A stretch of DNA of 54,364 bases from Enhygromyxa salina (lineage in GTDB: Bacteria > Myxococcota_A > Polyangia > Nannocystales > Nannocystaceae): contig NZ_PVNL01000139.1 in assembly GCF_002994635.1 (NCBI RefSeq), positions 146,055 through 200,418 on the forward strand. The letters are read 5' to 3'. Each line of letters opens with the position of its first letter. Within the stretch, counting starts at the first letter, position 1. A program made the translations under genes and the position numbers. The notes below the pieces were generated by a model. That model made no database searches. It had not been told where the DNA came from and saw only the letters and a program-made list of their open reading frames with translations. This document shows, one piece after another, positions 8,076-33,098 of the stretch.

Positions 8076-8083
8076 CAAACAGC

Positions 8084-9853
<1,770 letters not shown>

Positions 9854-9881
9854 GCGATGCTGGACCTCTTGCGGGCTCAAG

Positions 9882-11723
9882 TCAGTTGGGGCGGGAACGA
9901 GACGGGGGCTCGAGCTTGCCCTTGATCTCGTAAAGTTCGGCGAGTAGCTCGCGGGCGCGGTCTTGATCGCCGCGGGCCATGGTCTGGGAAATTTGTTGCT
10001 CGAGCCGGTGGCGGGTGGCGAACAACACTTCGCGCTCACACAGGGCGAGCGCGGCCTGCAGCGCGGCCTTGGGATCTTCTTCGTCGGAGAAGCTCGGGCT
10101 GCGGCGATCCGGGGTGAACAACAGGTGCAGCGCGTGGCGCTGGCTGGGATCGACGAGCTCGAGCAGCTCGCCTGCGCTCGGGCGAGGCTCGCCGTTCTTG
10201 GCGGCCTCGATGGTCCGGCGAACGATCGGACCGAGGCGGTCATCGGTGACGTGATTCAAGACTCCCTCGCGCTCGGCCACGCGCGCGAGCTCCGGGCGAT
10301 CGACCAACAACGCGGTGACGCTCGCCTGTCCGCTCGGCAAAGGCTTGACCGGGCGCATGGCCGCGGAGTGTTGCATATCCGCCAAAAAATGCGACCTCTG
10401 GCCATTCTCGATCGACCCCCTGATCTTCGCGACAGGTACGTTGAGCATGTCCGCCGCGAGGTCGGCGTAGGTCTCTCGGGCCGATTGCCGGCGCACATGT
10501 CGTAATAGCGGCAACAGCGCATCGAGCGCTTTTTCTTTGGCCTCGACTGATCGCAGCGCCCCCTTGGCGATCATGCGGTCGACGAACCACAAGATGGCCG
10601 GGCGGGGACGAGCGAGCAGGTTGTCGAGCAACTCGGCCGAGGTGCTGTCGGGGTCCTCCCCCGGTTCGAGCGCCGCAATACGGACATCCATGCCGATCTC
10701 GAGCAACAGCGGGAGCGCAGCGTAGGCGGCCTTGGCCCCGGCCCGGTCACCGTCGAAGCACAGCACGATCGTGTCGGTGAACCGGGCCAGCAGCTCGCAT
10801 TGCTGCTTGGTCAGGGCGGTGCCCAACGCCGCGACGGTCTCGATGTAGCCGCGCTGGTGCATGGCGACCACGTCGATCTGGCCCTCCACGAGGATCCCGC
10901 GCTCGCGCTCACGCATGTTCGATCCGGCGGCGTGCAGACCGAACAACGTTTTCGACTTTTTGTAGAGCAGCGACTCTGGCGAGTTGATGTACTTGGGTGC
11001 CTTTTGTCCGTCGTCGGTCTCGGCGAACGCGGGCAGGACCCGACCCGAGAACCCGAGCACCCTTCCGCCTGGCGCGAGGATCGGGAACATCAGGCGACCC
11101 CGAAATCGATCGTAGTAGCTGCCGCTCCGCTGGCTGCGCGCGACCAGGCCGAGCTGCTCGGCGACATCGAGCGACAGTTGCTTGGATTGCAGCTCTCGCG
11201 CCAGCGTGTCCCAGCCGCCCTCCTCGGGCGCCGGGGCGTAGCCGACGCGGAAGCTCTCGCTGGTCTGGGCATCGATCCCGCGCTGCTGCTGGTACGCGCG
11301 CCCGGCCTCGCCGACCGGCTCGTCGGTCAGGACCCGGCGGAACAGCTCGGCGGCGCAGGCATTGACCTGATAGGCGTCCTCGCGCTCGCGCTCGCGCTGC
11401 TCGGCCCGCCGCACGTCGCCCGTGCTCTGATCCGGCATCGCCACGCCGACCCGCGCGCCCAGGGTTCGAACCGCCGCCAAGAACCCGATGCCCTCGACCT
11501 TCTGGATGAAGTCGAACACGTCCCCCCACGCGCCGCAGCCAAAGCACTTGAAGCTGCGCCGGACCGGGTCGACGTAGAAGCTTGGGCTCTTCTCGTCGTG
11601 AAACGGGCACAGGCCCTTGAATTGCTTGCCGGAGCGCTTGAGCCCGACGTGTCCGCCGACGACATCCGCGATGTCAGTCTGCTCGCGGATCCGCTCGATG
11701 ATCTGCTCTGGGATCGCCGCCAT
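9882..11723 (-). CDS. dnaG: DNA primase
   Basis: ATG at 11723 ([22 protein letters not shown]); zinc-ribbon [11 protein letters not shown]...[15 protein letters not shown]; TOPRIM region [14 protein letters not shown]...CFDGDRAG; lies 28 nt upstream of rpoD (classic dnaG-rpoD operon). Confidence 0.95.
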
Positions 11724-14975: not shown

Positions 14976-15004
14976 CCCGCTGTAAATGACCCCCACAGAG
15001 AGCT

Positions 15005-15300
15005 TGCCCTTCGCCGACTGCAGCCGCTGGCGCGTCTGGTCGCTTCGCTCCTCGGGACCGTTTGCTCGCAGGCGCATGTGTGGCCCCCTGGGAGGGGGCT
15101 CTGAGCACATTTTCCGCTACGCAAAAATCTAGCCAAAGGTTCGCGCGCGCTGCGCGGCCCATGGACGCCGGCAAACAAGGTTCCGAGCCCCCTCATAGGG
15201 GGCCACACATACCCATGCGCACAGCTAGCCCCGAGGAGCGAAGCGACCAGACGCGCCAGCGGCTGCAGTCGGCGAAGTGCCAAGCTCTCTGTGGGGGTCT
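15005..15300. repeat. composite palindromic intergenic repeat element (REP/MITE-like), copy A; second copy at 46125-46335
   Basis: Inverted arms 15011-15106 and 15186-15283 built from a 45-bp unit CCCCGAGGAGCGAAGCGACCAGACGCGCCAGCGGCTGCAGTCGGCGAA plus the palindromic module GAGCCCCCTC(C/A)(C/T)AGGGGGCCACACAT; ends in TGTGGGGGTCTAAAAA immediately 5' of the ATG at 15305. Confidence 0.8.
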
Positions 15301-17844: not shown

Positions 17845-19944
17845 ATGACCAAATCCAAGTGGTTCCCTCGTAGTTTGTTGTGCGCCTCGCTGATCCTCGC
17901 TGCTGGCTCAGCACAGGCCGGCGGCACCAAGACCCACAAGCTCGACGAGTTCGACGAGTTCGACGACGGTGAGGTCGTCGGCGCCGCGATCGAGACCAGC
18001 GGCCGGGTCACCCGGGGCTACGCCAGCGAGCGCGCCGATCTCGAGCTCAGCTCCGCGTTCACCTGCGTGACCGACGGCAAGCAAGCCTGGGTCGGGACCG
18101 CAGACAACGCCACGATCCAGCAGGTTGACCTGCGCGGCGGGACCCCGGCCGTCAAGCAGCTCGTCGAGCTCGAGGGCGTGGTCGTCAGCGCGATCGCCCG
18201 GCTGCCCAGCCAGGATCTCGTCGTCGCCGTGCTCCCTGGTTCCAAGCTGCTGCGGGTCGACAAGAACGGCGAGGTCAGCGACTTCGCCGAGCTCAAGGAC
18301 GTCGAGCAGATCTGGGCGATCGTCCCCCACAAGGGCAAGCTGCTGGTTGCGACCGGTCCCAAGGGCGAGCTGTGGTCGGTCGGCACCGACGGCAAGGACC
18401 CGAAGGTCGTGCTCGACGTGCCCGAGAAAGACATCTTGTCGGTGCTCGCCGTCGGCGACGAGATCCTAGTTGGGACCTCGCCCAAGTCGCGGCTGTACAA
18501 GCTGGACGCCGCGCTCGAGGGCGTGCTGCTCCACGAGTTCAAGGGCGATGAGATCCGCGCGCTCGCGCTGTCCGGCTCCACGGTGATCGCCGCCGTCAAC
18601 AAGTTCGAGGATCGCAGCGTGTCGAGCCGCGTGGCCCTGACCAAGCAGCTCAACCGCTCGAGCCTGACCGGCGAGAAGCCCGAGGACAACAACACCGCCC
18701 GGTCCCGCGCCGACGCCGACGCCGAGCTGTGGGCCGTGGACCTGGGCAGCAAGCGCGACGTGCTGCGTGCCCAGGACGCGGCGTGGGACAAGTGGTTCGC
18801 CAAGGGCTCGCAGTACTTCATTGATCTGATCGCGCTCGACGACAGCGGCACCGTGCTCGCGGCCAGCTCCGAGGGCGGCAGGATCTATCGGGCCCGCGGG
18901 CGCCGAGACGTCTCGATCGTCGCGGATCTCGAGGAGCGCCAGGCGACCAGCATGTGCCGGACCGACAGCGGCGACATCCTCGCAACCGCCAGCGACGGCG
19001 CGGCCGTGTACCTGCTCTCGCCCAAGGCCGCCAACGCCAAGACCAAGCCGCGCTGGGTGTCCGAGGTGCTCGACGCCGATCACCCCGCCCGCTACGGCAG
19101 CTTCGCGCTCGAGGGCAAGGGCAAGCTCGAGCTGCGCGTGCGCTCGGGGCCGACCGAGGAGGTCGATGATCGCTGGAGCGCCTGGAAGCCCGTCAAGCTG
19201 GCCAGCGAGAACGGTGAGCTGCGTGGGTCCACGGATCTGCCGCAGCGTCGCTACCTGCAGGTCGAGGTCGCGCTTGGGGACGACAGCGCCGAGCTCAGCT
19301 CGATCACTGCCTTTTACGCGCCCGAGAACCTCGCGCCGCTGGTGGAGGAGATCGACGTCAAGATGCCGAGCGTGAGCAGCAGCAGCGACGAAGAGCCCGA
19401 TCCCACGATCACGATCGAGTGGGACGCCGAGGCCCGCGATGATGACGACCTGCTGTACGAGGTTGCGATCCGGCGCACCGGGACCGGGGATGACGCCTGG
19501 GTCAGGCTCAACAAGGACGGGCCGCTCACCAAGAAGGAGATCAAGCTCGACCTCGATACCCTGGCTGACGGGATCTATGAGGTCCAGGTGATCGCCAGCG
19601 ACGAGCCCAGCAACGGCGCTGGCGCGGCGGCGCGGGACTCGTTGATCTCCGAGCCGTTCGTGATCGACCGACGTCGGCCGACGCTGGAGAACGTGCGCGC
19701 CAACGCGGGGCGGATCACCGGGGTCGCCAAGGACCAGGGGAGCTACGTGCGCGACGTGGCGTTCTCGATCGACGGTGGGGCGTTTCGGTCGGCCTCGGCG
19801 AGCGATGGGCTGTATGACTCGAGCACTGAGCAGTTCGAGCTGGTCCTGCCGAGCGAGCTTGGGCCCGGGCTGCACCGCGTGGTCGTGCGCGCGCGAGACG
19901 TGCGGGGCAACCTCACGACCGTGGCGCTCGAAGTCGGCGGCTGA
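17845..19944 (+). CDS. secreted hypothetical protein (signal peptide, repetitive beta-rich body); its 3' end is the duplicated integration site of the downstream island
   Basis: Signal MTKSKWFPRSLLCASLILAAGSAQA; no catalytic motifs recognised; last about 40 codons are duplicated at 30310-30428. Confidence 0.6.
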   Translation: MTKSKWFPRSLLCASLILAAGSAQAGGTKTHKLDEFDEFDDGEVVGAAIETSGRVTRGYASERADLELSSAFTCVTDGKQAWVGTADNATIQQVDLRGGTPAVKQLVELEGVVVSAIARLPSQDLVVAVLPGSKLLRVDKNGEVSDFAELKDVEQIWAIVPHKGKLLVATGPKGELWSVGTDGKDPKVVLDVPEKDILSVLAVGDEILVGTSPKSRLYKLDAALEGVLLHEFKGDEIRALALSGSTVIAAVNKFEDRSVSSRVALTKQLNRSSLTGEKPEDNNTARSRADADAELWAVDLGSKRDVLRAQDAAWDKWFAKGSQYFIDLIALDDSGTVLAASSEGGRIYRARGRRDVSIVADLEERQATSMCRTDSGDILATASDGAAVYLLSPKAANAKTKPRWVSEVLDADHPARYGSFALEGKGKLELRVRSGPTEEVDDRWSAWKPVKLASENGELRGSTDLPQRRYLQVEVALGDDSAELSSITAFYAPENLAPLVEEIDVKMPSVSSSSDEEPDPTITIEWDAEARDDDDLLYEVAIRRTGTGDDAWVRLNKDGPLTKKEIKLDLDTLADGIYEVQVIASDEPSNGAGAAARDSLISEPFVIDRRRPTLENVRANAGRITGVAKDQGSYVRDVAFSIDGGAFRSASASDGLYDSSTEQFELVLPSELGPGLHRVVVRARDVRGNLTTVALEVGG

Positions 19945-19946
19945 GC
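19828..19946 (+). repeat. left copy of 119-bp direct repeat (about 96% identical to 30310-30428); attL-like island boundary formed by the 3' end of gene 17845..19944
   Basis: Direct alignment of both copies: 5 mismatches in 119 bp; both end in ...GAAGTCGGCGGCTGAGC. Confidence 0.85.
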
Positions 19947-20059
19947 GCTCGAACCTGGCCGCGCCCTCGCTGACGCCGCTGGGGTTCGTGCCGCCTGCGG
20001 AGTACGACACTAGCTTGGCCTCGTGACGTCCGCCCGTGGTGTTCACCACGGCCATGAGA

Positions 20060-21244
20060 TCATCGTTCGGTGGTCGCCTGTACACGTGCCACCAGTCGCT
20101 CGCCCGCCTCCTCCCAGCCCTGAAGGGTGTCCGAATCGGTCGCTAGCTCGACCAAGTGGACCGTGATCCGCGAGCCGTCGACGTTGCGGTATCGGAACGG
20201 CCGGAGGTCGCTCAGCATCCCCTTGGGGAACACCAGCACGGCCTGTCGCGCGCCGGTCATCCAGCAGTAGGTCAGCGTCTGTTGGAGGTTCGCCGACGCG
20301 GGGGTGGTCTTGTACTTGGCGTCGACGATCACGGGGCGGTCACCGTCGCAGCGCTCGAGCAATACGTCGATCTCCATGCTGCCCCCGTGGACCGAGGCGT
20401 CCACCGGGCCGCGTCGGTACGGGAGCTGAACCTTCGCGCGCGCGCCGGGCAATGACCGGGTGAGCGCGCGGGCGACCGAGCGCTCGAACAAGTTGGCGAG
20501 GTTGATCAGAAACGAGAGCCCGCGGACGCCCGTGCCCTCTGTCAGGCCGTGGGCGTGAGCCAGCAACAGGGCCAGGGCGACGCTCGGCTCGAACGGACGC
20601 TCGAGTCGGGTCAAGGGCAGCTTGCCGCTGACCAGCGCAGGTTCGACGCGGGGCTGGACCTCGGCGAACAGCGCGGTCAGGGGACCGAGGGCCGGCCCTG
20701 CGGCGGCGCGCATGACGGACACTCGTTGGATCGACGCCAGCGCGGCCGCGAGCAGCCCGTTCAAAGGCGTGTTCGGGAGCCTCGAGAACACGATGCAGGG
20801 GACTTGGGCCAGGTTCGCGCCCATCCGAGACATCCGGGCGAAGTCGATACGACCGCGTACGACCGACGAGACCTGCTCTTGCCGGCGATAGTGGCGGAGC
20901 AGCCCCGTCGCCTGGATCGCGCGACTCAGCTCGTCGCAGAACACCCGCGCGAGCGCGGCCGCGACGTCGCCCTGTTCACCGCCGTGGTCGCTGCGACTCA
21001 CGTGCCGCAGAGCCGACAGCTCCGGGTAGGCATAGGCGGCCCAAGTTAGCAGACACGCGAGCGGAGCCTTGCGCGAGCGTATGCACAGGGTCGATCCATC
21101 CGGCATGCGCAGCGAGCCTGCGACCCGCACGATTCGCATGCCATCGGCGCTGACCCCAAAGTTCCCACCCAGCAGTCGCCCGAGGTGACTGGCATGCTCT
21201 GGCGACGCAGCGAAGGGCTCGTTCTCGTAGACGACCCGAACCAT
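20060..21244 (-). CDS. mcrC: McrC-like endonuclease subunit (PD-(D/E)xK) of an McrBC-type modification-dependent restriction module
   Basis: C-terminal nuclease motif PVIVDAKYK (PD...D-A-K) typical of McrC; ATG at 21244 overlaps the McrB stop (TGATG); in-frame TTG at 21247 is an alternative start. Confidence 0.75.
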   Translation of the reverse strand: MVRVVYENEPFAASPEHASHLGRLLGGNFGVSADGMRIVRVAGSLRMPDGSTLCIRSRKAPLACLLTWAAYAYPELSALRHVSRSDHGGEQGDVAAALARVFCDELSRAIQATGLLRHYRRQEQVSSVVRGRIDFARMSRMGANLAQVPCIVFSRLPNTPLNGLLAAALASIQRVSVMRAAAGPALGPLTALFAEVQPRVEPALVSGKLPLTRLERPFEPSVALALLLAHAHGLTEGTGVRGLSFLINLANLFERSVARALTRSLPGARAKVQLPYRRGPVDASVHGGSMEIDVLLERCDGDRPVIVDAKYKTTPASANLQQTLTYCWMTGARQAVLVFPKGMLSDLRPFRYRNVDGSRITVHLVELATDSDTLQGWEEAGERLVARVQATTER

Positions 21245-22965
21245 CAAGGCTCCGCCACCTGGCCCTCCTCGAGCTCGTCATCCTCGTCTTGGAGGGTCTG
21301 GCGGTCGGAGAGCTCGCGCGAGACGATCGCCCGCCAGATTCCGTCGGCCTCGGCCAAGGCCTGCTCGTCACCGAAGAAGTACTCCTCGAGCAGCGGCCGG
21401 ATGTCCATCGCCCATAGCTGCCCGAACGGGTCGCCGTCCTCGACCAGCGCTGGGGACAGGAAGTAGCTGTGGCCGATCTGATGGTCCCGGTCGAGACGCT
21501 TGGCGATCCACTGGTTGAACGCATCGAGGATGCCCGGACCCACTTCGGCGATCAGCCCGGGCACACGGGCCGCCCCAACGACCTCTGGGTTGGGGTCGAC
21601 GCGGACGAACCCGAACCGACGACGCAGTGCGTAGTCGACCAACGCCACGCTGCGATCGACCGAGTTCATCGTGCCGATCACCACGAGGTTGGGCGGAACG
21701 ACCAGCTTGCCCCCGAGCGCGAGGGTCACGGACTCACCACGGTACTCGAGCGCGTAGAGCAGCTCGCCAAAGATCCGCGCTGGGTCACCACGGTTGATCT
21801 CGTCGATCACCAGCACGTAAAAATTGTCGGGGTCCTCGCCCGCCGCCTCGGCGATCTGCACGAACGGCCCCTTGGTCTGCTCGTAGCGCAGCGTGGTCTG
21901 CTTGATGTCTGGACGCAGGCCCTGGATGAAGTCCTCGTAGGCGTAGCTGGGGTGGAACTGGACCAGGCGAAACCGTCCGTCCTCGTCGGCCGCGTCCTCG
22001 CCTGTGAGCGCGCGAGCGACCTGCTTGGCGACGTGGGTCTTGCCGGTGCCGGGTGGGCCGTAGAAGATCAGGTTGCGGGGCGGGGCGAGGTCCGGGGACG
22101 CGCCGAGCTGAGGGGCGAGACGGAGGGTCAGGGCGTCGTGGATGGGCTTGCCGAGCTTGGGCCGGAGGCGTTGCCAGGTGTCGAGCACCCGATGGGCGGG
22201 GGCATTGGCGGTCGGTGGCGGCCACACGGGGGCGCCTCCACTCCCGTCGGCCCGCACCTTGGCGCTGGCGGGCGCAAACCCGTTGGGATCCCAGCCGTCG
22301 CGCTCTTGCTCGAGGTGCAGGCGCCCGGCAGGAGTGATCTTCCACTGGCCGGTCTGGGGGTTCTCGGCGAGCCCTCGCTTCCCGAGGTTCGAGAGCGCCC
22401 AGGCGGCTCGGAACTCGAACACCCGGACACCGCCAGGCATGAGACGAAGGTCGCCCGGTCGGAGTCGGTCGCCGAGGTGTCGCTCGACGCGCTCGAGGAT
22501 CTCCCCGCGATCGGTGAGGTTGAGGGCCAGCGCTTCGAGTATGGGGACCTCATAGGCTTTGAATGCCGTGACCTCGACGGTGTCGGTCTGGACCTTGCGC
22601 GCGATTGGCTCGGTGGCCTCGGGGATGGCGAGGTCGACGGAGAGTGGATCGCTCTCGTGAGCACGGGCGTGGGCACGGCCGAGCTCGGTGAGCTCCCACC
22701 AGCCGTACTCGCCGACGATGAGGCCTGCGTGCTTGAGGTCGTGTCGAGCCCAACCGAATCGGTTCTTTGACTCGAGGTAGTCGAGCTGCCCCTCGGTGAG
22801 CTCTCCCGCCAAGAGCTCTCGGATCCTGATCACGACCCTCTGCTTGCGAGCACGGCCGCCGAGCTGGCTCAGCGCACGTGTGACCGGGACGAAGAATGGG
22901 CGGTGGGAGCTCGAGGTCGCAGCCAAGCTCGCTTCGGCCGCTTCGAGGGTGGGGTCGTTGGTCAT
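21244..22965 (-). CDS. mcrB: McrB-like AAA+ GTPase subunit with N-terminal tandem Mrr_N-like winged-helix (DNA-reader) domains
   Basis: Walker A NLIFYGPPGTGKTH; Walker B/McrB box FYVLVIDEINRGDPARIFGELLYALEYR; McrB signature IGTMNSVDRSVALVDYALRRRF (the MNTADRS motif); N-terminal repeats resembling Mrr N-terminal wHTH (GWARHDLKHAGLI..., ...WALSNLGKRGLAE...WKITPAGR); ATG overlaps helicase stop (ATGA). Confidence 0.85.
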   Translation of the reverse strand: MTNDPTLEAAEASLAATSSSHRPFFVPVTRALSQLGGRARKQRVVIRIRELLAGELTEGQLDYLESKNRFGWARHDLKHAGLIVGEYGWWELTELGRAHARAHESDPLSVDLAIPEATEPIARKVQTDTVEVTAFKAYEVPILEALALNLTDRGEILERVERHLGDRLRPGDLRLMPGGVRVFEFRAAWALSNLGKRGLAENPQTGQWKITPAGRLHLEQERDGWDPNGFAPASAKVRADGSGGAPVWPPPTANAPAHRVLDTWQRLRPKLGKPIHDALTLRLAPQLGASPDLAPPRNLIFYGPPGTGKTHVAKQVARALTGEDAADEDGRFRLVQFHPSYAYEDFIQGLRPDIKQTTLRYEQTKGPFVQIAEAAGEDPDNFYVLVIDEINRGDPARIFGELLYALEYRGESVTLALGGKLVVPPNLVVIGTMNSVDRSVALVDYALRRRFGFVRVDPNPEVVGAARVPGLIAEVGPGILDAFNQWIAKRLDRDHQIGHSYFLSPALVEDGDPFGQLWAMDIRPLLEEYFFGDEQALAEADGIWRAIVSRELSDRQTLQDEDDELEEGQVAEP

Positions 22966-25910
22966 GATGCGGCCGTCAACGTACGAGGCCCGGGCCCGAG
23001 ATCAATCGCGAGCGACTCCGCCAACCGCGACGGCAGCTCCGGAGGCTCGACATCGTGAAGTTCGTACTCGTTGAACTGAGGTTGGGCGCCGAGCAAGAAC
23101 TCGAGCCACTTCTCGCGTAGCTTCACCGTGCGGAACATGCGTTCGTCGATGGTCCCCCTGATCACCGGGTAGAGTACATCGAGCTTCGCGTCCGGCGTCT
23201 CGCTACGGACGCGAACGAGCTTGGATCCGAGTCGGTCGATCCGGCCGATTCGTTGCTCAATCTGCGCCGGGTTCCAGACGAGGTCATGGTGGACCACGCG
23301 ACGACAATGTCGATGGAGGTCGAGGCCCTCTTGCATGACTTCGTTCGCGACCAGGACCATTGGAAACAGCGGGGTGTTGAAGGCCTCGCGCAGGCGATCG
23401 CGCCCCTCGGGGCTCTTGGTGTGTCGGACAAAGCTGCCCGACCGGATCGGTCCCTCGAGGATCATCGCCTGCTGCCGATCGTCCCGATCGATGAAGTACT
23501 CGAGGAAGCTCCGCACGAGCTCGAGCCAATGCCGGCCTTCGGGCAGCGTCCAATACTGATCGAGGAACGCCAAGCTCGGGGCGGAGTGGACAGGGTCGAC
23601 GGAGAGACCATGGTCAATGGCCGCGTGGAGGAACTCCGGCACGAACGGGACCTGTCGATAGGTGAGGTACCGGCTCAGCTGCTCGACGACGCGGACCCGC
23701 AGCTTCAGCGCCAGCCGATCCAAGAGCCCGGTCACCGACTCCCAGAGATTTCCGTGCTCTCCGATCACCAGGCGGGCAATCGATTCACTGACGGTCCAAG
23801 TGGGGCGCTGATCGCCTACCGAGTCATTCTCAAATTCGTCTTTCTCGAGATCGAGCCCGAGGGTCAGGAAGTCGGCGCGCAAGATGGCGTGGATCGCTTC
23901 CGGGTTTGCGGCCGCTGCGACCGGCCGACCGGCGTGTTCCCACAAGCGAACCGCAGCCTGCTCGACACATCGCTTGGCGACCTGGTAGCTGATGTCGCTC
24001 GCAGCGGAGCTTGCGACGGTCACCGACCGCAGGAGCCGATTCGCCTCCTCCGCGATCGGCCCAACGTTGACCAGGGCCCAGCCGGAGATCGGTACGACGG
24101 TGCGAAGGTATCGCTCGCGCAGCGCCAGGTATAGCGAATCCTGAGCTCGGTGAAACCGTTGCTGAAGTCGGGTGTGCTTGCCACGGACTCGGCTGGGGTC
24201 TTCGCCTTCACCCTTGCGGTCAAAGATCTCGTCGGCGGTCGCGCCGGGATAGACCCGCTGCCAGCGAGCGAGCATCCGCTGATCCCAAGCGGCTCGAATC
24301 TCGCGTCGCAGCTGCTCGAGGGTGGCGACACGCGAGCAGAAGATGAGGGTCTTCTCTCCGCCTTCGGCAGCCGTCAACGCGTCAGCGATCCCGAATTCGA
24401 GCTTGGGGTGGCTCTCTGCGCTGGCGTCGATGTGACCAAGCACGCTTTTGAGCAGCTCGCGGTAGACCTCGGCCTGCGGCGGCAGGGGGGTGCCTTCAGT
24501 CGTCATGATCGCGCCACCCGACGCGGCCGCATAGGAGGACACCATGTTGATCTCGACGGCGGCCTTGTGCGTGGGGCGGTGACGTCGAAACATCTCGGCG
24601 GTCAGGCGCTCGTAGATCAGGAAGGGCAAGACCGAGTCACCCTTGGCGTCGAGGGTCTTGGGCTGGTGGTCCCGGTACTGGCGCTTGTCCTCGCGCAGAC
24701 TGCGGATCATCCACTTGCGAAACCCGGGTTCGATGACGTCGTTCTTCAGTCGTCGGAGGTTCTTCACCTGCGCCAGCACGATCTGAAGGCTCTCATCCTC
24801 GGGTGCGTAGCGCTCCGGGTCAGCGTCGTAGTCGCGCGAGAACTCGGCCGCGACGAATGGTTCGAGGTTGGTCCAGGTGGTTTGAAACGCGTCGTAGGCG
24901 TGTTGGTACTCGCGGACTTTGGACAACAGGGCGTCGATCTCGTCGAGCAGGCCCCTCGGTGCTGACTTGGCCAAGCTAAACAGGCCGAAGACCTCGCGGA
25001 GCTCGCCGATGTCGAGCTGGAAGGGCGTCGCGGTCAGGAACACGGCCTTGTGAAAGCCGTTGTGGAAGATGGTTCTCATGCCCTGAGAGCGCAAAGAGCC
25101 CGAGTTCTTTAGCTTGTGGGCCTCGTCGACGATCAGCAGGTCGATGGCGGGGAGTAGGCGGCCGGCGAGGATGAAGCGCGCTCGATACAGGGCGTTGCGG
25201 ACGGCGTAGGGTCGTTCGAAGCCAGCCAGACCTTCGGCTTCATAGATGTCATCGAGTCCAGCCCAGCCTTTGCTGCCTTCACCCTCACCCTTCTTCCCTC
25301 GATGGAATGCCGACCGCAAGTGTCGCTCGAGATCTCCGAGACCGAAATGTCCGAGGAAGCGCTCGTGCGTGACGTCGACGCGCTCGTGCTTCCCCTCCCT
25401 GAACCTGGCCATGATCGCGTTCGCGGTCCTGCCGTGGAGACCCTTCCAGTGAAAGAACAAAGACAGCAGGTAGGTCTGTGCGCCTCCGCCCTTGCCCCCC
25501 TGGAACATGGTCACCGGAGAGACGACGATCGGGTGTTCACGAACCAGACGGATGAACCCCGAGAGGCTGGTCGCCGACTGCACCTCCCCCCCGAAGTCGT
25601 ACATCTGCTTGAAGCGCGCAAATTCTTCGACCCACTTCGTGTTGAGGTCGGGCCCGGGCGTGACGACGACGATCCGCGCCTTGGGCTTGCGATGTCGGAC
25701 GGCCGCGGCGAGGCCGAGCGCCTCGAAGGTCTTCCCCATCCCGACCTCGTCAGCCAAGATGACGCCCGGGCGATCTTCGAGCGTATGCAGGGCGCGAAGG
25801 ACAGTGTCCTCCTGCCGACGCACATCCCGAGACGGGATCCCGTCCTGCGCTCGCCGAGCGCCCAGCTGCAAGAAACACCGAAGCCAATCTAGGGTCGCCG
25901 TGTCAGTCAT
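22962..25910 (-). CDS. SNF2-family (SF2, DEAH-box) helicase/ATPase
   Basis: Motif I ILADEVGMGKTFEA, motif II LLIVDEAHKLKN, motif III FLTATPFQ, helicase-C motifs LVANEVMQEGLDLHRHCRRVVHHDLVWNPAQIEQRIGRIDRLG; ATG at 25910 overlaps the stop of the upstream PLD gene (ATGA); the 5' extension of the raw ORF (to 26627) is out-of-frame read-through. Confidence 0.85.
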   Translation of the reverse strand: MTDTATLDWLRCFLQLGARRAQDGIPSRDVRRQEDTVLRALHTLEDRPGVILADEVGMGKTFEALGLAAAVRHRKPKARIVVVTPGPDLNTKWVEEFARFKQMYDFGGEVQSATSLSGFIRLVREHPIVVSPVTMFQGGKGGGAQTYLLSLFFHWKGLHGRTANAIMARFREGKHERVDVTHERFLGHFGLGDLERHLRSAFHRGKKGEGEGSKGWAGLDDIYEAEGLAGFERPYAVRNALYRARFILAGRLLPAIDLLIVDEAHKLKNSGSLRSQGMRTIFHNGFHKAVFLTATPFQLDIGELREVFGLFSLAKSAPRGLLDEIDALLSKVREYQHAYDAFQTTWTNLEPFVAAEFSRDYDADPERYAPEDESLQIVLAQVKNLRRLKNDVIEPGFRKWMIRSLREDKRQYRDHQPKTLDAKGDSVLPFLIYERLTAEMFRRHRPTHKAAVEINMVSSYAAASGGAIMTTEGTPLPPQAEVYRELLKSVLGHIDASAESHPKLEFGIADALTAAEGGEKTLIFCSRVATLEQLRREIRAAWDQRMLARWQRVYPGATADEIFDRKGEGEDPSRVRGKHTRLQQRFHRAQDSLYLALRERYLRTVVPISGWALVNVGPIAEEANRLLRSVTVASSAASDISYQVAKRCVEQAAVRLWEHAGRPVAAAANPEAIHAILRADFLTLGLDLEKDEFENDSVGDQRPTWTVSESIARLVIGEHGNLWESVTGLLDRLALKLRVRVVEQLSRYLTYRQVPFVPEFLHAAIDHGLSVDPVHSAPSLAFLDQYWTLPEGRHWLELVRSFLEYFIDRDDRQQAMILEGPIRSGSFVRHTKSPEGRDRLREAFNTPLFPMVLVANEVMQEGLDLHRHCRRVVHHDLVWNPAQIEQRIGRIDRLGSKLVRVRSETPDAKLDVLYPVIRGTIDERMFRTVKLREKWLEFLLGAQPQFNEYELHDVEPPELPSRLAESLAIDLGPGPRTLTAAS

Positions 25911-28063
25911 GATTGCACTCCGTAGAACGAGCGAACCTGCGCGAGCCAGGCCCGAGGCGGCGAGTCCGATACCAGCGTGTCGAGGTCGGACTGAAGCTGC
26001 TCGACAAAGCCGTCGAGGTAGCCCCTCTTCTTGTCGCTGGCGTCGTCGTCGGGCAAGTGAACGGTCGAGAGCTCCCGCAGCAGCTCGGCCCCGTAGAACC
26101 AGATCGTGTCGCGCGAGAACGCCTCCGTGGCGGCCGCCTCGAGCATGCGCTTCCAGACCGCGCGCAGCCCCAACGAGCCGTCGATACCGAGCCGAAAGGC
26201 GGCAACCGAGGTCTCGGGATGAGCGAGTTCGGCCGCCACGCTCCACCACGCCTTGAACACGTCGGTGGGACCGAAGCCGAGCCCAAACAACTCGTCGAGC
26301 GGGGCGTCGGAGTCCGAGCCAGCCACGAGACGCTGTTGCGTCAGATGCTCGAGGCGTTCGCGTCCCAAGCGTCGGCCCAACAGCAGCAAGAGCTCGTAGA
26401 GGCCCAACAATCCTTCGCCGGGACCAACCGGGAGCGCGACGAGGTCGCTGACCAAGATCGGGATCGCGCATGCGAAGTCGCCGACGATCAGCGTGAGCTC
26501 GGCGCTGGATCGGTGGAGGTCGAACTCGTTGATGACCGTGGCCTGCGTGGGGGCCCCGACCCCGCTGGCGACGATGGCGTCGCGGTAGGTGAGTGACCAC
26601 GCAGGCAGCACGACCGCTTGGGTCCACTCGACGACCAGCGTTCGAGCGGCGGCGTCATACACCGCGTCGAGCACCGCCAGCGCGTAGTTGGGGCCCAGGT
26701 CGGGGAACTCGCGCTCGTGCACCGACACCGCGAGGTGTGGGCACGCGACGAGATCAGGGGCGATGTCGTCGAGCGCGAGCGACCCCTCGACCTTTTGCGC
26801 GAAGCACAGCTCGACGTTGCCAGTCTGCGCCGTGGTCAGCAACAACGCCTTGCGCGATGCGTTGGCCGAGCCCACGACGACCAGGGTCTCGCTGCGGCCC
26901 GCGGTCTCGTACGCGAGCACGAGCAGCTTGGCGTGGAGCGGGCGATAGACCAGCCGCCCATCGACCAACTGGGTCGTGGGGTGCAGCCACACCTGCATGG
27001 ACTCGAAGGCGGCGCGGGCGGATTCGAGGGCCGCGGGCGGTGCGTAGGCGCGGGGCTGCTCCAACGGCCAGAGGGTCTGTTTGGCGAGCGCGGCCTCGAT
27101 ACCCTTCAATGGCCACGACTGACGTTCGGCGTGCGCATCGAGGCCGTGGAGTCGGGTCCGCGCGACCTTGGTCGGGACCAGGTAGGTCACGGCCTCGTTC
27201 CCAGCCTCGTCTTTGCCGAGCCACCCCCACAAGCGGCCGAGACCGTCGGCGATGCGTGTGGTGTGTGACTGGGGCCGGACCGCCGGGTTCTCCCAGAGCA
27301 CGCCGACATCGAGGTGCGCGCTCGGACCGGCGAGCTGGTACAGACGGCCAAACACGGAGTCGAGCGACTCGGCGGCGGCTCGATCATCACGCTCGAAGAA
27401 CGGCGCCATGATCCCGACTCGCTCGATGACGGCGTCTGCAGGCAACAGCGCGAGCGCCTGGTCGAGGATGCAGCTATCCAGGGTCGAGTCGAGGCACGCG
27501 ACCGAGCTGTCCACGTCTCCCGTCCGCCCTGGCAGGCGGCGCTCGAACTCCTCCATGAACAAGTGAAGTTGCGTGCCTCGTCGCCGCGCAAACGCTGAAG
27601 CCCGCTCGATGCACCCGACCAGCTCGTGCAGCGTCTGCGCCTCCGACTGGATGTCGTAGCGAAGGTCGAGGGTGAGGAACAGCTCCGCGTTGCTCCCATA
27701 GCCAGCCGAGGTCAGGTTGCCCGATCCGACATGGACCCGAGCGAAGCCCTCGTAGAGCAAGATCGCCAGCTTCGAGTGAAAGACTCGGGCCGACACGTCG
27801 AGGAGGTCGTAGGCCAGGCGGCGTCCACCCTGGCGCACGCCGGCGTCCGCGATCACGGCGATCGGCGTGACTTGCAAGCTGGCGAGCGCCTCGTCGTGGT
27901 AGCGCGTCGGCTGCTCGACGGGGTCTGAGCTGAGCCGGAGGACCGCGCGCAGGACGTGGTTTTCGAAGAACGACGGGTCGAACGCGTAGGTGAGAAACAG
28001 GGCCCCGAAGCACATCTCCTCGGCAGCGAGACGGTCGAGCACCTTGCCGACGGCGACCTTCAC
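25907..28063 (-). CDS. phospholipase D-family (two HKD motifs) nuclease, 718 aa
   Basis: HKD motif 1 HSKLAILLYEGFARVHVGSGNLTSAG and HKD motif 2 HAKLLVLAYETAGRSETLVVVGSANAS; GTG start at 28063 preceded by GGGAGG (5 nt spacing), overlapping the upstream stop (GTGA). Confidence 0.8.
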   Translation of the reverse strand: MKVAVGKVLDRLAAEEMCFGALFLTYAFDPSFFENHVLRAVLRLSSDPVEQPTRYHDEALASLQVTPIAVIADAGVRQGGRRLAYDLLDVSARVFHSKLAILLYEGFARVHVGSGNLTSAGYGSNAELFLTLDLRYDIQSEAQTLHELVGCIERASAFARRRGTQLHLFMEEFERRLPGRTGDVDSSVACLDSTLDSCILDQALALLPADAVIERVGIMAPFFERDDRAAAESLDSVFGRLYQLAGPSAHLDVGVLWENPAVRPQSHTTRIADGLGRLWGWLGKDEAGNEAVTYLVPTKVARTRLHGLDAHAERQSWPLKGIEAALAKQTLWPLEQPRAYAPPAALESARAAFESMQVWLHPTTQLVDGRLVYRPLHAKLLVLAYETAGRSETLVVVGSANASRKALLLTTAQTGNVELCFAQKVEGSLALDDIAPDLVACPHLAVSVHEREFPDLGPNYALAVLDAVYDAAARTLVVEWTQAVVLPAWSLTYRDAIVASGVGAPTQATVINEFDLHRSSAELTLIVGDFACAIPILVSDLVALPVGPGEGLLGLYELLLLLGRRLGRERLEHLTQQRLVAGSDSDAPLDELFGLGFGPTDVFKAWWSVAAELAHPETSVAAFRLGIDGSLGLRAVWKRMLEAAATEAFSRDTIWFYGAELLRELSTVHLPDDDASDKKRGYLDGFVEQLQSDLDTLVSDSPPRAWLAQVRSFYGVQS

Positions 28064-29442
28064 GAGAGCCTCCCGAGATCGTGGAGCAGCCGCTGGACGA
28101 CACCAAGCTTGAACTCCGGAAACTGGGCCCTCGTGCGATAGCCCGTGTAGTTGGTGGCCTGCAAGATGAGCTTGTCGTCCTGCCGACGGATCCACGACCC
28201 TCCACCGCGCCGAGACTGCTGCACGGCCCGGTGAAACGCGAGCAGTCGATCGAGGGCCGTCGAGCTATCGGCAACCGAGAGCTCCACGACGAGCTGCATC
28301 ATGGGAGGCCCGTGGAACACGAGTCGGCGAAAGCGGGCCGAAGCCGGGGCATCGAGGACCTCGCGACACGCAGCACGCAGCTCGTCCATTTGTGCGGCTG
28401 GAAACGCGGCGCTGGCCGTGGCCGCGAAGTCGGCGACCCAGTTGTGGTCGTTGATGAACGCATAGGCGCTGGCGAAGCGATCGAGCACGAGCTGAGCGAA
28501 GCGGCCAAACGCGATCGCGGTCTGGACCAAGTCTCGCAACGGGGGATCGAGCGGGCCCCAACGGCCCTCCAACATCCCTTCGAGCAGCTCGGCGGACGCG
28601 TCCACGCCGTCCCGTCGAGCGGCGATCAGCTGGTGGGCGAGCGACAAGGTCGTGCCGTCGCGGGCGTTGAGGAACAAGGCTTGCCATAGCCGATCCTGCT
28701 GAGCCTTTCGGCCGCGCTCGGTCAGCGACGACAAGCGCGACATCTTCCCGACCTTGGCGAGCGAGATTCTTCCGTGCTTGCGCTCGATCGTGAGCCGCTT
28801 GGGGTCGAGGGCTCGGAGCGCGTACTCCTGGTACTGGCCCACGGCCTGATTTTGGTCGGGTTCGTCCCAGAACGCGTCGATGATCGTCCTGGCTGCCAGC
28901 GATGGTCGCAGCGTGCCAGGGACCACGAGCTTGTATGTCCGCAGCGACGACAGGTAGGCACCAAGGCTCCCCAGCTCGCTCTGACGAGAGATCAGGCTAT
29001 AGTCGAGCCGCAACGGCCTGGCTCCGTCGAACCACGCTCGCGTGGCCCCACGTATGCCTCGCATCCCGTCCGCGTGACCTCGCCCCAGCGACCGACCATG
29101 AGACTCGAGCGTGGCCAGTGCCCAGAACCGTTCCCAGCGCTCGAACAGCTTGGTGCGCGAGACGTCGTCGCTCGGGATGTCATACCGCTGACAAGCGAGC
29201 TCGGCGAGATGCAGCCCGTAAATGACGACGGCGTAGTTCTGTGCCCGGCTCGTACGGGTCGTGAACCCTTCGAACAGCCACAGGCCGACCTGTTGTCCGA
29301 GGTAGTCGAACGCCAGCGGGTCCTCGGGCGTGAAGTCGGAGTCGAGGTCGAGGGGCGCCGACCAGTATAGCGTCTTGGGCAGAGTTTTTTGTGTCAGCAA
29401 CATGAGATCACGACGACGGGTCGGCACGATATCCAAACGCAC
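28060..29442 (-). CDS. hypothetical protein (460 aa), first gene of the five-gene PLD/SNF2/McrBC operon
   Basis: GTG at 29442 with GGGAGA 8 nt upstream; high GC3 throughout; no recognisable motifs; stop overlaps the PLD start. Confidence 0.6.
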   Translation of the reverse strand: MRLDIVPTRRRDLMLLTQKTLPKTLYWSAPLDLDSDFTPEDPLAFDYLGQQVGLWLFEGFTTRTSRAQNYAVVIYGLHLAELACQRYDIPSDDVSRTKLFERWERFWALATLESHGRSLGRGHADGMRGIRGATRAWFDGARPLRLDYSLISRQSELGSLGAYLSSLRTYKLVVPGTLRPSLAARTIIDAFWDEPDQNQAVGQYQEYALRALDPKRLTIERKHGRISLAKVGKMSRLSSLTERGRKAQQDRLWQALFLNARDGTTLSLAHQLIAARRDGVDASAELLEGMLEGRWGPLDPPLRDLVQTAIAFGRFAQLVLDRFASAYAFINDHNWVADFAATASAAFPAAQMDELRAACREVLDAPASARFRRLVFHGPPMMQLVVELSVADSSTALDRLLAFHRAVQQSRRGGGSWIRRQDDKLILQATNYTGYRTRAQFPEFKLGVVQRLLHDLGRLS

Positions 29443-29500
29443 CCGTTTTGTCTCCCATGGGTCTCGCTCCGCGCGGTAGGAAGACTGCTAGATTTCAGCC

Positions 29501-29848
29501 GTGGGAATTCGAACCAAGGGCCGAAGGCGGATCGAGGTCGAGGGTCAGGCCTACCATTGGGACTACCGCGCGAGCGGGCGCGGGCCGGGGCAGATCACGG
29601 CCGACGACATGTACTTCGCGCCGCGGCCAGCGGTGGTTCGCATCATCGCCGAAGACAAGAGCCTCCTCGCGACCTGGGACGGCGTCCACCTCCACGTCGG
29701 CGAGCTGCGCCGGGAGCTGCGGCCCCACCACATCGCCCCGGTCACGCCCAAGCTCGTGCGCCAGCTGATCCAAGAGGCCCTGCGCCTACGCGGCTCGGAC
29801 CGAGATCCACGGATCACCCCAGCGCGGTGGTGGCTGGACTTCGAGTAG
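29501..29848 (+). CDS. hypothetical small protein (115 aa) at the right end of the island
   Basis: GTG start, high GC3, no homology recognised; may be non-coding. Confidence 0.3.
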   Translation: MGIRTKGRRRIEVEGQAYHWDYRASGRGPGQITADDMYFAPRPAVVRIIAEDKSLLATWDGVHLHVGELRRELRPHHIAPVTPKLVRQLIQEALRLRGSDRDPRITPARWWLDFE

Positions 29849-30309
29849 CACCCATACGATTGCAATCAAATCTGCGCGAGCACGTGGACGTCGCGGCCGA
29901 CCTGGCGCACGCAATCCACCAAATCCTCGAGCTCTTTGAGCTGCGCGCGGGTCATGGTGAAGGCGCCGATCGGATCGACAGAAACGAAGATCGTCAGCCA
30001 GCTCCCGGTCCAGCGAAACGTCGCGTTCGCGCGCTCGACCCGGGCGTCGGCGGCGTTGGAGTCGAGCAGGGTCCGGCGCCAGAGCCAGAGCTGGCGGCGT
30101 CGTAGGTGTCTGGATCCCCCTGCCCCGAGCGTCGTCGCGTCGATGAAGCGATCCTCGGAGCACCGGCACGCGGTCGAAGCATTTTTCACGGGGTCGGGCA
30201 CCGCGGGGGATGGTTCGGCTCCACCAGCGTCGAAGATCGGCACGGTGCTGGCAATGCCGCCCCACCAGCATGGCCAACATCAACGATCTCTTCCACGGCC
30301 TCGAGCGCC

Positions 30310-30428
30310 GAGCAGTTCGAGCTGGTGCTGCCGAGCGCGCTCGGGCCCGGGCTGCACCGCGTGGTCGCGCGCGCGCGGGACGTGCGGGGCAACCTCACGA
30401 CCGTGGCGCTCGAAGTCGGCGGCTGAGC
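30310..30428 (+). repeat. right copy of 119-bp direct repeat (attR-like); displaced pseudo-3'-end of gene 17845..19944
   Basis: Encodes ...FELVLPSALGPGLHRVVARARDVRGNLTTVALEVGG*, identical in 37 of 40 residues (5 nt mismatches) to the C-terminus of the 17845..19944 protein; the upstream part of ORF 30106..30426 is unrelated. Confidence 0.85.
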
Positions 30429-30573
30429 CCACGCCGCCCTCACGCCACGGGGCGTGAGTGTCAGCGCCGCTCAGAAGTTCGGCCGGCGGGCCGGCTGACA
30501 ACCCACGCATCCAACACATGCACGCGCCCAAACATCGTGGCACTCTGGGGGCCACACCCCGGGGCGCGGTTTC

Positions 30574-30876
30574 ATGACGGCACAAGCAGAGATCGAAGGC
30601 ATCCTCAGCACACTCGACGAGGCATACGATGAGCTGCGTGCGGCGAGGACACGGCTCGCCGAGCTGCTGCCGATGTCTGCGACCAAGCCGGGCGACAGCG
30701 GCCAAGCGCGAGTCGAATTCGTGGCCGGGCTTCAGCCCGACACCGAGGAAGTGAGCGGCGAAGAGCTGATCCGCAAGATCAACGCGGAGGCGTGGGAGCG
30801 GGCCCAACGGGCGCTCGTCAACGCAGCCGAGAAGGTCGAGCTCGCCCACAAGCACCTGCGCCGCGAGCTGGCGTGA
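30574..30876 (+). CDS. hypothetical small protein (100 aa, predicted helical)
   Basis: ATG start, high GC3; no family recognised. Confidence 0.4.
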   Translation: MTAQAEIEGILSTLDEAYDELRAARTRLAELLPMSATKPGDSGQARVEFVAGLQPDTEEVSGEELIRKINAEAWERAQRALVNAAEKVELAHKHLRRELA

Positions 30877-31540
30877 CAGGCTCGCGTCGAGCTGAACGAC
30901 TCGGCCCCTGGTTCTGCGGTTGTTCGGCTCATCCGTGAGCCAGACCCATGCTCGCTCGGCTGGTCAGGCCAAGAAGCTCAGCGCCTCGGCCCGAAGCCGG
31001 GCGCGCGGTGACTTGCCGCGAACGCGGGCCTTGGGTGGCTCGGCAAATCCGATGAGGTCGAGGCGGCGAACAATCTTAGTGATAAAGCGCATGGTCTTGC
31101 CTTTCTTGGCGGTTTAGCGGCTGGCGCCTCCCTCACGGCTTGTGGGTGGAGGTGATGCCTGACGTGCTTCTGTTTTACAGATACTGAATCTGGAGGTCAA
31201 CCTATTTGATGGAAAATTTTCATGTCACTGGATTTTTGAGGTTAGGCGCTCGGCCCCCTCAGATCGAGCTCCATTGGACCATTAGCTGGTTGAAATCGGC
31301 GTTCAACGTGATTCCAAGGCCGTACTATACGCATTATTTAGTAGTTTTACATACGAAATATGCTGATAATGAGGGCAGAATCGAGCGGCCCGACCAACAG
31401 CCAACCTGGAATTTCTAGCTGGGATTTCCAGCCCCACTGGAATTCTGGATTTTTGGTAGGCCCGCTCTCACCTACGGCAAAGGCCGGCCCCTCGACCGCC
31501 GAACGATCGAAGCACCGGCCTTTGGGGTGGCGAGGAGTTG

Positions 31541-31903
31541 CTAAGCGGACTTCGCGGCCTTGGCGGCCTTGCGAGCGCGTCGCTCTTGCGACTCCACGCG
31601 GTCGAGCAGCCACCCAAGCGTGCGCTTGCTGGTCAGCGCCTGCACGTAGTCCTTGTCGGCGGTCTTGTTCTCGGCCGCGGCGACCTTCTGGACCAGGCCC
31701 TCGCGCCCACCGTGGGCGGCGACCTTGTCGGACAGCGCCTTGAGGTGCAGCAACTTGGCGTTGGAGACCAGCGTCAGGCGCTCGGCCAGCTCGTCCTTGG
31801 ACTCGTCCTCGAGCGGCTCGAGCACGTCGGACAGCTGCTTGGCGAGCTCCTTCTTGGAGCCGTACTTCTCGTTGAGGATCTGGAGGGGTGTTTGCTTGGC
31901 CAT
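31541..31903 (-). CDS. hypothetical protein with Lys/Ala-rich C-terminal tail (possible nucleic-acid-binding)
   Basis: Internal ATG (MAKQTPLQILNEKYG...) with GGGAAGAG SD-like sequence upstream; C-terminus ...RRARKAAKAAKSA; followed on the plus strand by the hairpin AAAGGCCGG-N29-CCGGCCTTT (about 31468-31515). Confidence 0.5.
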   Translation of the reverse strand: MAKQTPLQILNEKYGSKKELAKQLSDVLEPLEDESKDELAERLTLVSNAKLLHLKALSDKVAAHGGREGLVQKVAAAENKTADKDYVQALTSKRTLGWLLDRVESQERRARKAAKAAKSA

Positions 31904-32017
31904 GGTTCTCTTCCCGTTGGGCACCGCCAACAGCAGCTGGCGGGAGGAGGGGGCCGGCATTGAAACTCAGGAACCGGGGCGCGTCCAGGCGCTGGGCGTG
32001 ACTTTTGGGGCGGGCGC

Positions 32018-33001
32018 TCAGGGTGCTGGCGTCGCGTGGGCCGCGGCCGCGAGCGCGGCGAAGTCACCAGCCTGAAGCTCGAGGCCGACCCGCACGCGGT
32101 CGCCGACGTTGCCCACGTTCACGCGCCCGAGCACGCCCGCGAGCGCGGCGGGGAGCTCCGCGGCGGCGTCCTTGCTCAGCAGGCCGTGAAGCCCCGCCGC
32201 GGCGGTCTGAGCTGCGGCGTCGGTCTCGAAGCCAGCCGTGAGCTCGACCCGCGCGCGCTCGCCGAGCTCGACGGCGCCGGTCAAGTTGATGGCCGCGGCG
32301 GCCTCGGGCACGCCCACGAAATTGAAGAGCATCGCAACTTGCGGCGGGAGATCGGCGGCGAGCCACGCAGCGGCGTGGGTGTCGACGGTGGTCAGCAGCT
32401 CGCGCTTGGCGTGCTTGGCCGCCGGCTTGGCTTCGCCCTCTCCGTCGATAAGCTCGCCGACCTGCCCCTGCCACCCGGCCGTGGCGAGCACGAGCAGGTT
32501 CGCGTTGACCAAGAACACCCGACCGTCGGGGAAGTCGATGATCTTCTTGCTGTCGTCGACGCTGATCTCCGCGCTGGGTGCAGCCCCGACCAGCCGCTGC
32601 GCCGCCTCGATCATGCAGAGCGCCCGCGCGTCCTCGCCGAACCCCGAGCCGGTCAGCGCGACCACGAATTCGTCGGCGTGCGTGCCGATCACCACGCTCT
32701 CGAAGCTGCGTAGCTCGAGGCCGCAGCCGTCGAGCGCCTGCTTGGCCTGCTGAAACTGGGGCTCGGCGGCCAGCTCGGCGGCGAACTGGCTGGCGAGCTG
32801 CGAGCTTGCGAACACGGTGGGGGTGAGCCCCGCGATGACGCTGGCCTCGTTGGGGATCAGCTCGATCGGCTGCGGGAAGGCCTCGCGTGCTGGCTGTGCC
32901 GGGGCGACCGCGACGGCGTCCGACTCGGCCTCGCGCCCGCAGCCCGAGCCAACAGCCACCGCCAGACCCAGCGCGAGCCTCACATACAGTCGCCTGGGCA
33001 T
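32018..33001 (-). CDS. hypothetical lipoprotein (tandem paralog 1)
   Basis: ATG at 33001 gives MPRRLYVRLALGLAVAVGSGC (lipobox); homologous to 33099..34007 (for example LIPNEASVIAGLTP vs LIPDEAEFIVGLNP). Confidence 0.6.
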   Translation of the reverse strand: MPRRLYVRLALGLAVAVGSGCGREAESDAVAVAPAQPAREAFPQPIELIPNEASVIAGLTPTVFASSQLASQFAAELAAEPQFQQAKQALDGCGLELRSFESVVIGTHADEFVVALTGSGFGEDARALCMIEAAQRLVGAAPSAEISVDDSKKIIDFPDGRVFLVNANLLVLATAGWQGQVGELIDGEGEAKPAAKHAKRELLTTVDTHAAAWLAADLPPQVAMLFNFVGVPEAAAAINLTGAVELGERARVELTAGFETDAAAQTAAAGLHGLLSKDAAAELPAALAGVLGRVNVGNVGDRVRVGLELQAGDFAALAAAAHATPAP

Positions 33002-33098
33002 GGTGGACGGTCGTTGGCCGGACATTTGTCGGGACGCTAGCACGCAAAAAGGGACCGTCACCGGTCCCTTTTTGAGCGCGAGCCAGTGGCTCGAGAGA

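Follow-up and report, generated by a model that had tools for sequence, protein, structure and literature searches.

We analysed a 54,364-nucleotide stretch of the Enhygromyxa salina SWB007 genome (contig NZ_PVNL01000139.1, positions 146,055 to 200,418; this whole stretch is called the window, and positions are counted from its first letter), in which a conserved gene for a secreted protein is interrupted at its 3′ end by a 10,353-nt island (19947-30299). The island lies between two copies of that gene end and carries a single operon, predicted to act against phages, together with debris of about 0.9 kb. Its genes bear ENSA7 locus tags, which denote strain SWB007. The window around it belongs to the core chromosome, with rpoD, dnaG, nadC, ychF, ApbE and lipoamide dehydrogenase nearby. 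Scans for tRNA and transfer-messenger RNA (tmRNA) genes and for Rfam families returned no match in the window, and the island is therefore not linked to a tRNA gene.

Two copies of a gene end flank the island

The interrupted gene (17845..19944, plus strand) encodes a 699-aa protein whose N-terminus resembles a signal peptide and whose C-terminus weakly matches the Ig-like domain Big_13. This protein matches a hypothetical protein of E. salina at 100% identity and has orthologues across the Nannocystaceae, and the third-position GC content of the gene is 0.91. The last 42 codons lie in a direct repeat whose two copies (19818-19946 and 30300-30428; start-to-start spacing 10482) are 129 nt long and agree at 122 positions (94.6%, seven mismatches). 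These limits were set by an alignment of seven loci, after direct pairwise alignment and a repeat finder run over the whole window. A sequence-only reading of the same DNA had proposed a 119-bp repeat with five mismatches and 96% identity; within these narrower coordinates (19828-19946 and 30310-30428) there are indeed exactly five mismatches, whereas the left limit had to be moved, as the repeat reaches 10 nt further left. Apart from the tandem paralogues and the REP-like element described below, the repeat finder detected no other direct repeat of similar length and identity in the window.

The left copy (19818..19946, plus strand; attL-like) consists of the last 125 coding nucleotides of the open reading frame (ORF) 17845..19944, the TGA stop codon and 2 nt, and it completes the functional gene, in agreement with the earlier description of this copy as native C-terminal codons plus stop. 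The right boundary of the repeat thus falls 2 nt past the stop codon. Within the repeat, the two copies are identical over 7 nt at the 5′ boundary and over 50 nt at the 3′ end. The right copy (30300..30428, plus strand; attR-like) is a displaced and apparently decaying 3′ gene end that runs into native downstream DNA, and it encodes, in frame, a peptide ending in FELVLPSALGPGLHRVVARARDVRGNLTTVALEVGG followed by the stop. Similarity to all orthologues ends abruptly 5′ of the right copy and 3′ of the left copy.

Two ORFs that overlap the right copy were considered and rejected as genes. The sequence-only reading had placed the duplicated residues behind an unrelated N-terminus; the in-frame gene end is present, whereas the ORF that would supply the N-terminus (30106..30426) is preceded by an in-frame stop at 30103-30105 and has an upstream translation that is Arg/Pro-rich and of low complexity. 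No reading frame stands out by third-position GC across 30100-30450. An antisense ORF that runs through the right copy (30280..30855, minus strand, 191 aa) is a high-GC artefact: conservation is confined to its first ~100 codons, which are the opposite strand of a real 100-aa gene at 30574..30876.

Relatives retain the uninterrupted site

For comparison we used orthologous loci from a genome-collection scan with one genome per species, which yielded E. salina DSM 15201 (L001; 89% protein identity), strain SWB005 (L002; 76%) and a metagenome-assembled genome (L003; 67%), together with two metagenome contigs (L004 and L005) whose target-gene orthologues are 85-86% identical. Including further loci such as L019 and L020, 12 relatives were inspected, and in none of them (0/12) is the gene end duplicated. 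Six of them (L001, L003, L004, L005, L019 and L020, with protein identities from 89% down to 54%) have an empty site, with a single gene end and the same downstream order of target gene, 100-aa gene, 139-aa gene, 323-aa gene and RNase H. In DSM 15201 the gene end at position 12138 directly adjoins the homologue of window positions 30430-32980, and L001 12010-12138 aligns to both window copies; beyond the right copy, the window aligns with the DNA downstream of the stop codon in this strain. Because the uninterrupted ancestral site has been kept in relatives, both the event and its direction are unambiguous: DNA was inserted in the lineage of the window. The empty-site comparison that the sequence-only reading had suggested is hence positive in six loci, and the observations that would have spoken against an insertion, namely the same repeat in relatives or a dispersed repeat family, were not made in the window, in the 12 relatives or in IMG/VR, where a search with a degenerate gene-end pattern gave no match.

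The native downstream neighbour of the target gene is the 100-aa gene mentioned above (30574..30876, plus strand), which is 93% identical in L001, 81% in L004 and L005, and 53% in L003, and which starts about 70-360 nt past the target-gene stop in these four loci. Further downstream, the window has two adjacent minus-strand genes (32018-33157 and 33099-34070) that are distantly paralogous, with about 34% identity. Of these two types, only the first occurs in DSM 15201 and only the second in L004/L005, so that the locus next to the island (32018-34070) also varies by gene gain or loss.

The remaining six of the 12 relatives have different downstream synteny and lack the repeat. SWB005 was considered as a possible second island at the same site and was rejected, since its target gene is followed by genes for SUI1, a HAD hydrolase, a tail-collar protein and an FkbM methyltransferase without a second gene end; it therefore gives no evidence of a hotspot. 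A metagenome search for recurrent use of the site added only six loci, none with the repeat. As a separate observation, the segment 14705-21958 of the SWB005 locus, a few kilobases past the orthologous gene, encodes the phage tail-collar protein, a 973-aa protein and the FkbM methyltransferase, and has no similarity to the baseplate gene fragment in the island described below.

The two gene ends have diverged differently

The seven differences between the repeat copies can be assigned to one copy or the other by comparison with the orthologues. Four are private to the left copy, all at third positions and synonymous. Three are private to the right copy, at first or second positions; all of them change the amino acid, at residues that are invariant or nearly so among orthologues, and the left copy keeps the orthologue residue at each of the three. 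Synonymous changes on one side and non-synonymous changes on the other argue that the left copy is under purifying selection and that the right copy is decaying. The 4-versus-0 split of third-position changes (one-sided p about 0.06) is suggestive: it fits a left copy that arrived with the incoming element, and it fits equally well a divergence that followed a perfect duplication.

The last 150 nt of the gene (19795-19944) contain 10 window-specific substitutions, six of which are common to both copies; the stretch counted here begins slightly to the left of the repeat. Since these six changes are found in both copies, the duplication is recent and derived, postdating the split from L001, L004 and L005. 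The enrichment extends further upstream: window-specific substitutions amount to 33/447 in 19495-19944 vs 44/1650 in the rest of the gene, a 2.7-fold higher density (chi-square p=2e-4), and no comparable rise over the last ~450 nt of the target gene was seen in three related lineages. No matching excess is present to the right of the island. In the right copy itself the density (9/129) is like that of the left tract, and it drops to background level in the next gene. By class, there are 15 non-synonymous vs 8 synonymous substitutions in 19495-19794, compared with 17 vs 27 in the 1650 nt of the gene upstream of 19495, and the changes in 19495-19944 include about nine amino-acid replacements in the C-terminal Ig-like domain. 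This gene end may be either a recombination tract or a region of local acceleration. Polarising its substitutions with six deeper outgroups revealed no difference from the rest of the gene and did not separate a donor tract from acceleration.

The island carries a predicted five-gene anti-phage operon

Five minus-strand genes with 4-nt start/stop overlaps make up nearly the whole island. We searched them against Pfam, NCBIfam, PADLOC and PHROGs, and the larger flanking ORFs against Pfam. The first operon gene (28060..29403) encodes a 447-aa protein for which none of the four libraries gave a family match. It belongs to a widely distributed, strongly conserved and unannotated family (296 matches at E<=0.001), whose aligned members from Burkholderia, Bradyrhizobium, Sorangium and Planctomycetes share 50-78% identity, with 50-58% between phyla, and it has a confidently predicted all-alpha fold with no global match in PDB. 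The second gene (25907..28063) encodes a 718-aa PLD-like protein with a weak PADLOC match to ZacB (7.1e-13) and a Pfam PLDc_2 match (1.6e-4) below the curated cutoff; it has two HxK motifs, and the full HxKx4D motif was not found in it. Next comes a 982-aa SNF2/superfamily 2 (SF2) helicase (22962..25910) with PADLOC matches to PDC-M27C (8.3e-49), ZacC (1.8e-29) and DrmD (2.6e-26), the Pfam domains SNF2-rel_dom and Helicase_C, and a DEAH motif. The PLD-like gene adjoins the helicase gene in L008-L014 and L021 as well.

The last two genes encode a 573-aa McrB-family subunit (21244..22965), with a DNA-binding Mrr_N domain (6.6e-22), an AAA_5 NTPase domain (2.7e-20), the Walker A motif GPPGTGKT and an NSVD motif, and a 395-aa McrC-family subunit (20060..21247) that matches PF10117 (McrBC, 3.5e-21) and whose start overlaps the McrB stop by 4 nt. 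An Mrr_N/AAA+ protein beside a PF10117 protein is the combination that defines McrBC type IV restriction, and the pair is accordingly predicted to be such a system. Taken as a whole, the cargo is an intact and, judging by its overlaps, translationally coupled operon with a predicted anti-phage role, which the sequence-only reading had not recognised.

The five-gene cassette recurs at 76% nucleotide identity on metagenome contigs (L008/L009) within unrelated flanks that include an upstream HNH gene, and the homology stops at window positions 20072 and 29385; the cassette therefore behaves as transferable cargo. A three-gene core of the 447-aa protein, the PLD-like protein and the helicase is found in other myxobacterial contigs, where McrBC does not accompany it. 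Azaca (ZacABC) and the PADLOC candidate PDC-M27 have this three-gene layout of accessory protein, PLD-like protein and SF2/SNF2 helicase as well. The first protein of the island differs from that of Azaca in not being DUF6361/ZacA: no PADLOC ZacA or Pfam DUF6361 match was obtained for it or for 27 members of its family at E<=1. The helicase in turn matches PDC-M27C better than ZacC, and, unlike in Azaca, the three genes are joined with McrBC in one operon, both here and in L008/L009. Because Azaca needs all three of its proteins and cuts the modified DNA of phage T4 (bioRxiv 10.1101/2025.07.10.664194), the pairing of a PLD/SNF2 module with a modification-dependent McrBC system is functionally suggestive.

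Island ends and composition

At the left end, 113 nt of non-coding DNA (19947..20059) separate the repeat from the McrC stop. This sequence is unrelated to the native downstream sequence of the orthologues and has no significant fold, and no promoter or terminator signal stands out. At the right end lies the debris (29386-30299, ~0.9 kb), for which nearly all ORFs of at least 40 aa in all frames were searched with Pfam at E<=5. It contains an orphan ORF and a pseudogene fragment. The orphan ORF (29501..29848, plus strand, 115 aa) is divergent from the operon and gene-like in its third-position GC (0.87). Its single homologue (69%) is on a 588-nt metagenome contig, it had no family match, and its AlphaFold2 model was unusable (predicted local distance difference test score 45). 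The fragment (29878..30210, minus strand) derives from a baseplate wedge gene (TIGR02243/baseplate J-like); it is truncated at both ends, has an internal deletion and reaches within about 30-90 nt of the right junction. A stretch of 54 aa shares 80% identity with residues 649-702 of P0244, an E. salina protein of 821 aa, and a further, weak match falls at residues ~453-520 of that protein; P0244 itself matches TIGR02243 and PHROG baseplate wedge families.

The island has no terminal inverted repeats. Its GC content (0.663) is close to that of the flanks (0.67-0.685), as the sequence-only reading had noted, and its third-position GC is 0.84 vs 0.89 in host genes, making it only slightly atypical.

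Other features of the window

A ~100-nt intergenic repeat resembling repetitive extragenic palindromes or miniature inverted-repeat transposable elements is present at 14988-15106, 15182-15280 and 46148-46325. One inverted pair, 77 nt apart and 86% complementary, lies just upstream of thioredoxin/S55 genes, and copies 31 kb away are 82-97% identical. The 10-nt unit CCGATCACTC is repeated in tandem about seven times at 7987-8095, in a tract that reaches from just downstream of the rpoD ORF (8084..10243, minus strand) into its 3′ end. Two tandem paralogous minus-strand genes for proteins with a von Willebrand factor A domain (4280-5833 and 6291-7946) are 72-90% identical in patches and contain long acidic low-complexity tracts coding for Asp, Ser and Gly (3965-4063 and 7594-7824).

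Discussion

The island is best described as a small defence islet without an integrase, which was gained recently in the 3′ end of a protein-coding gene and in this lineage only. As for how it arrived, we favour an integrase-mediated, Campbell-type origin like that of e14 in icd, followed by decay, and give this reading a probability of roughly 50%. In this scenario the 10,353-nt block would have entered the conserved secreted-protein gene by a single crossover between the last ~127 nt of the gene and a near-identical copy on the incoming DNA. The block of similarity would span from the crossover region to the gene end, so that the incoming (left) copy completes the gene, and the displaced native (right) copy would be left as an orphan at the far end of the island. 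The crossover would most likely have been catalysed by the site-specific integrase of a larger element, and later deletions would have removed the integrase and most other genes until the operon and the ~0.9 kb of debris remained. We infer the integrase catalysis, the subsequent decay and the present immobility of the islet. What speaks most strongly for an integrase is the end of the similarity block, 2 nt past the stop codon. A block that reaches the gene end is reportedly a hallmark of gene-restoring integrations, a view attributed to Campbell and, for tRNA genes, to Williams in 2002. Elements that have to restore the gene 3′ end which they enter, such as tRNA-gene islands and e14 or phage 21 in icd (PMC4759930), follow this rule. 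The sequence-only reading had interpreted the locus as site-specific integration with reconstitution of the gene terminus; an inserted island and a restored gene end were borne out, whereas the repeats are not established as attL and attR of a site-specific recombinase, since a route without one, combining a homologous with an illegitimate crossover, would leave an identical footprint.

A close parallel is provided by the defective prophage e14 and by phage 21 in E. coli icd. There, as here, a protein-coding gene has been entered at its 3′ end; the replacement end supplied by the element differs by a few percent, as the incoming copy would here, and the native end survives on the far side as an orphaned pseudogene. 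e14 also carries the modification-dependent restriction gene mcrA and remnants of tail genes. Unlike the island, it retains an integrase and an excisionase and still excises, whereas no recombinase is present here and the 10 kb are almost pure cargo; host and target gene also differ, the present case being a myxobacterium with another gene as target. Between icdA and icdC, e14 shows 12 single-nucleotide polymorphisms and an 11-bp identical core (PMC4759930). The island also resembles streptococcal cis-mobilizable elements and decayed tRNA-gene islands, which have direct repeats derived from the target 3′ end, lack recombination genes and contain only cargo.

Several observations weigh against an integrase origin. 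Profile searches found no integrase, excisionase, transposase or remnant of one in the island or among the scanned genes of the window, as the sequence-only reading had stated for the DNA between the repeats. At the 5′ boundary of the repeat the two copies are identical over only 7 nt, and a simple integrase event would not lead one to expect the substitution excess in the left flank. The right-end debris is of a chromosomal type and does not look like the recombination module of a phage or of an integrative and conjugative element, since its baseplate fragment shares 80% identity with an E. salina protein whose intact form matched none of 50,697 phage records. The cassette is not accompanied by flanking repeats or integrases at the other loci that carry it (L008-L014 and L021). 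Cassette protein A, used alone or as a profile, had no match in IMG/VR, nor was one found among INPHARED phages, and the cassette is nearly absent from plasmids, the only plasmid match being distant (36%). Finally, no other insertion was seen at the target site in the 12 relatives, which therefore provide no evidence of repeated use of the site.

Some of these points would be expected if the island had been acquired from a related strain without any recombinase, by a RecA-dependent homologous crossover within the gene combined with an illegitimate joint 127 nt before the recipient stop. The donor would be a chromosomal fragment or circle that carried the 3′ part of the gene, the cassette and part of a contractile-injection-system locus, the process would amount to homology-facilitated illegitimate recombination or to a RecA-mediated Campbell insertion, and the repeat would be the overlap between donor and recipient gene ends. 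We regard this route as the main alternative, possible if somewhat unlikely. It accounts for an island free of recombinases and their remnants, for a right end that abuts a truncated Enhygromyxa-type baseplate pseudogene, as an arbitrary chromosomal joint would, and for the one-sided substitution excess (33/447 vs 44/1650, p=2e-4, with none on the right), which is the donor tract that it predicts. A donor with different DNA downstream of the gene is plausible, as synteny breaks directly after the gene in 6/12 relatives, and such recombination is experimentally documented and has been invoked for the type VI secretion system (T6SS) arrays of Vibrio (PMC5361080). However, it requires that the donor cassette began exactly 2 nt after the stop, a coincidence that the integrase model explains, and the right (recipient) copy has 6/10 of the window-specific changes, so that the divergent tract is not clearly donor-specific. 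In experiments this kind of event is orders of magnitude rarer than ordinary recombination (PMC5361080), and no donor was found in the collections searched. The T6SS arrays of Vibrio cholerae and Rhs and contact-dependent inhibition (CDI) loci are like the present case in having a conserved 3′ anchor from the upstream gene, at which new DNA enters and older sequence is displaced downstream without a recombinase (PMC5361080); they differ in that they exchange polymorphic toxin/immunity modules recurrently, whereas here a single event has left two near-identical ends of a non-toxin gene.

The same left-flank excess of lineage-specific substitutions could also have arisen if the island, already bounded by its repeats, had formed in another Enhygromyxa lineage and been imported by double homologous recombination, with crossovers near 19495 and just beyond 30428. 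The shared divergent states of the two copies agree with such an import, as does a right-copy density (9/129) that equals the left tract and gives way to background in the next gene. The counts are small, however, and the excess is rich in non-synonymous changes, which could reflect lineage-specific acceleration of the C-terminal Ig-like domain; as the right copy has most of the window-specific changes, import and local acceleration fit the excess equally well. Import would moreover only move the origin of the repeat to another lineage without explaining it, and we consider it unlikely. That the island is ancestral, and that the empty relatives lost it through recombination between the repeats, is very unlikely. 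Direct repeats can give rise to precise deletions, but six empty loci, down to 54% identity, all retain one uninterrupted synteny, and the substitutions common to both copies, being later than the split from L001, L004 and L005, effectively refute this possibility; a third-position GC slightly below that of the host and the presence of the cassette in unrelated contexts elsewhere also speak against it. A flanking duplication that directly abuts the insert might finally suggest the target-site duplication of a transposon, but no terminal inverted repeats or transposase accompany it, and 129 nt far exceeds any transposase target duplication known to us. An assembly or chance artefact would not be expected to show seven differences patterned by selection. 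Neither of these last explanations is really credible.

A more far-reaching view would be that the islet is an integrase-less satellite with still functional att sites, excised and moved by an integrase whose gene lies elsewhere in Enhygromyxa genomes, and that its sole payload, an undescribed accessory protein, a PLD-like nuclease, a SNF2 helicase and McrBC, would work as a single modification-sensing anti-phage machine; this we consider distinctly unlikely.

The finding does not overturn current understanding. It documents cleanly a recent gain of predicted anti-phage genes in a marine myxobacterium, a member of a group in which almost no work on mobile elements or defence systems has been done, and it marks the end of a protein-coding gene as an insertion site. 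The two copies of this gene end offer a small example of selection acting on one copy while the other decays. In the island, McrBC is also naturally joined to an Azaca-like PLD/helicase module, and the two together are a candidate composite system against phages with modified DNA.

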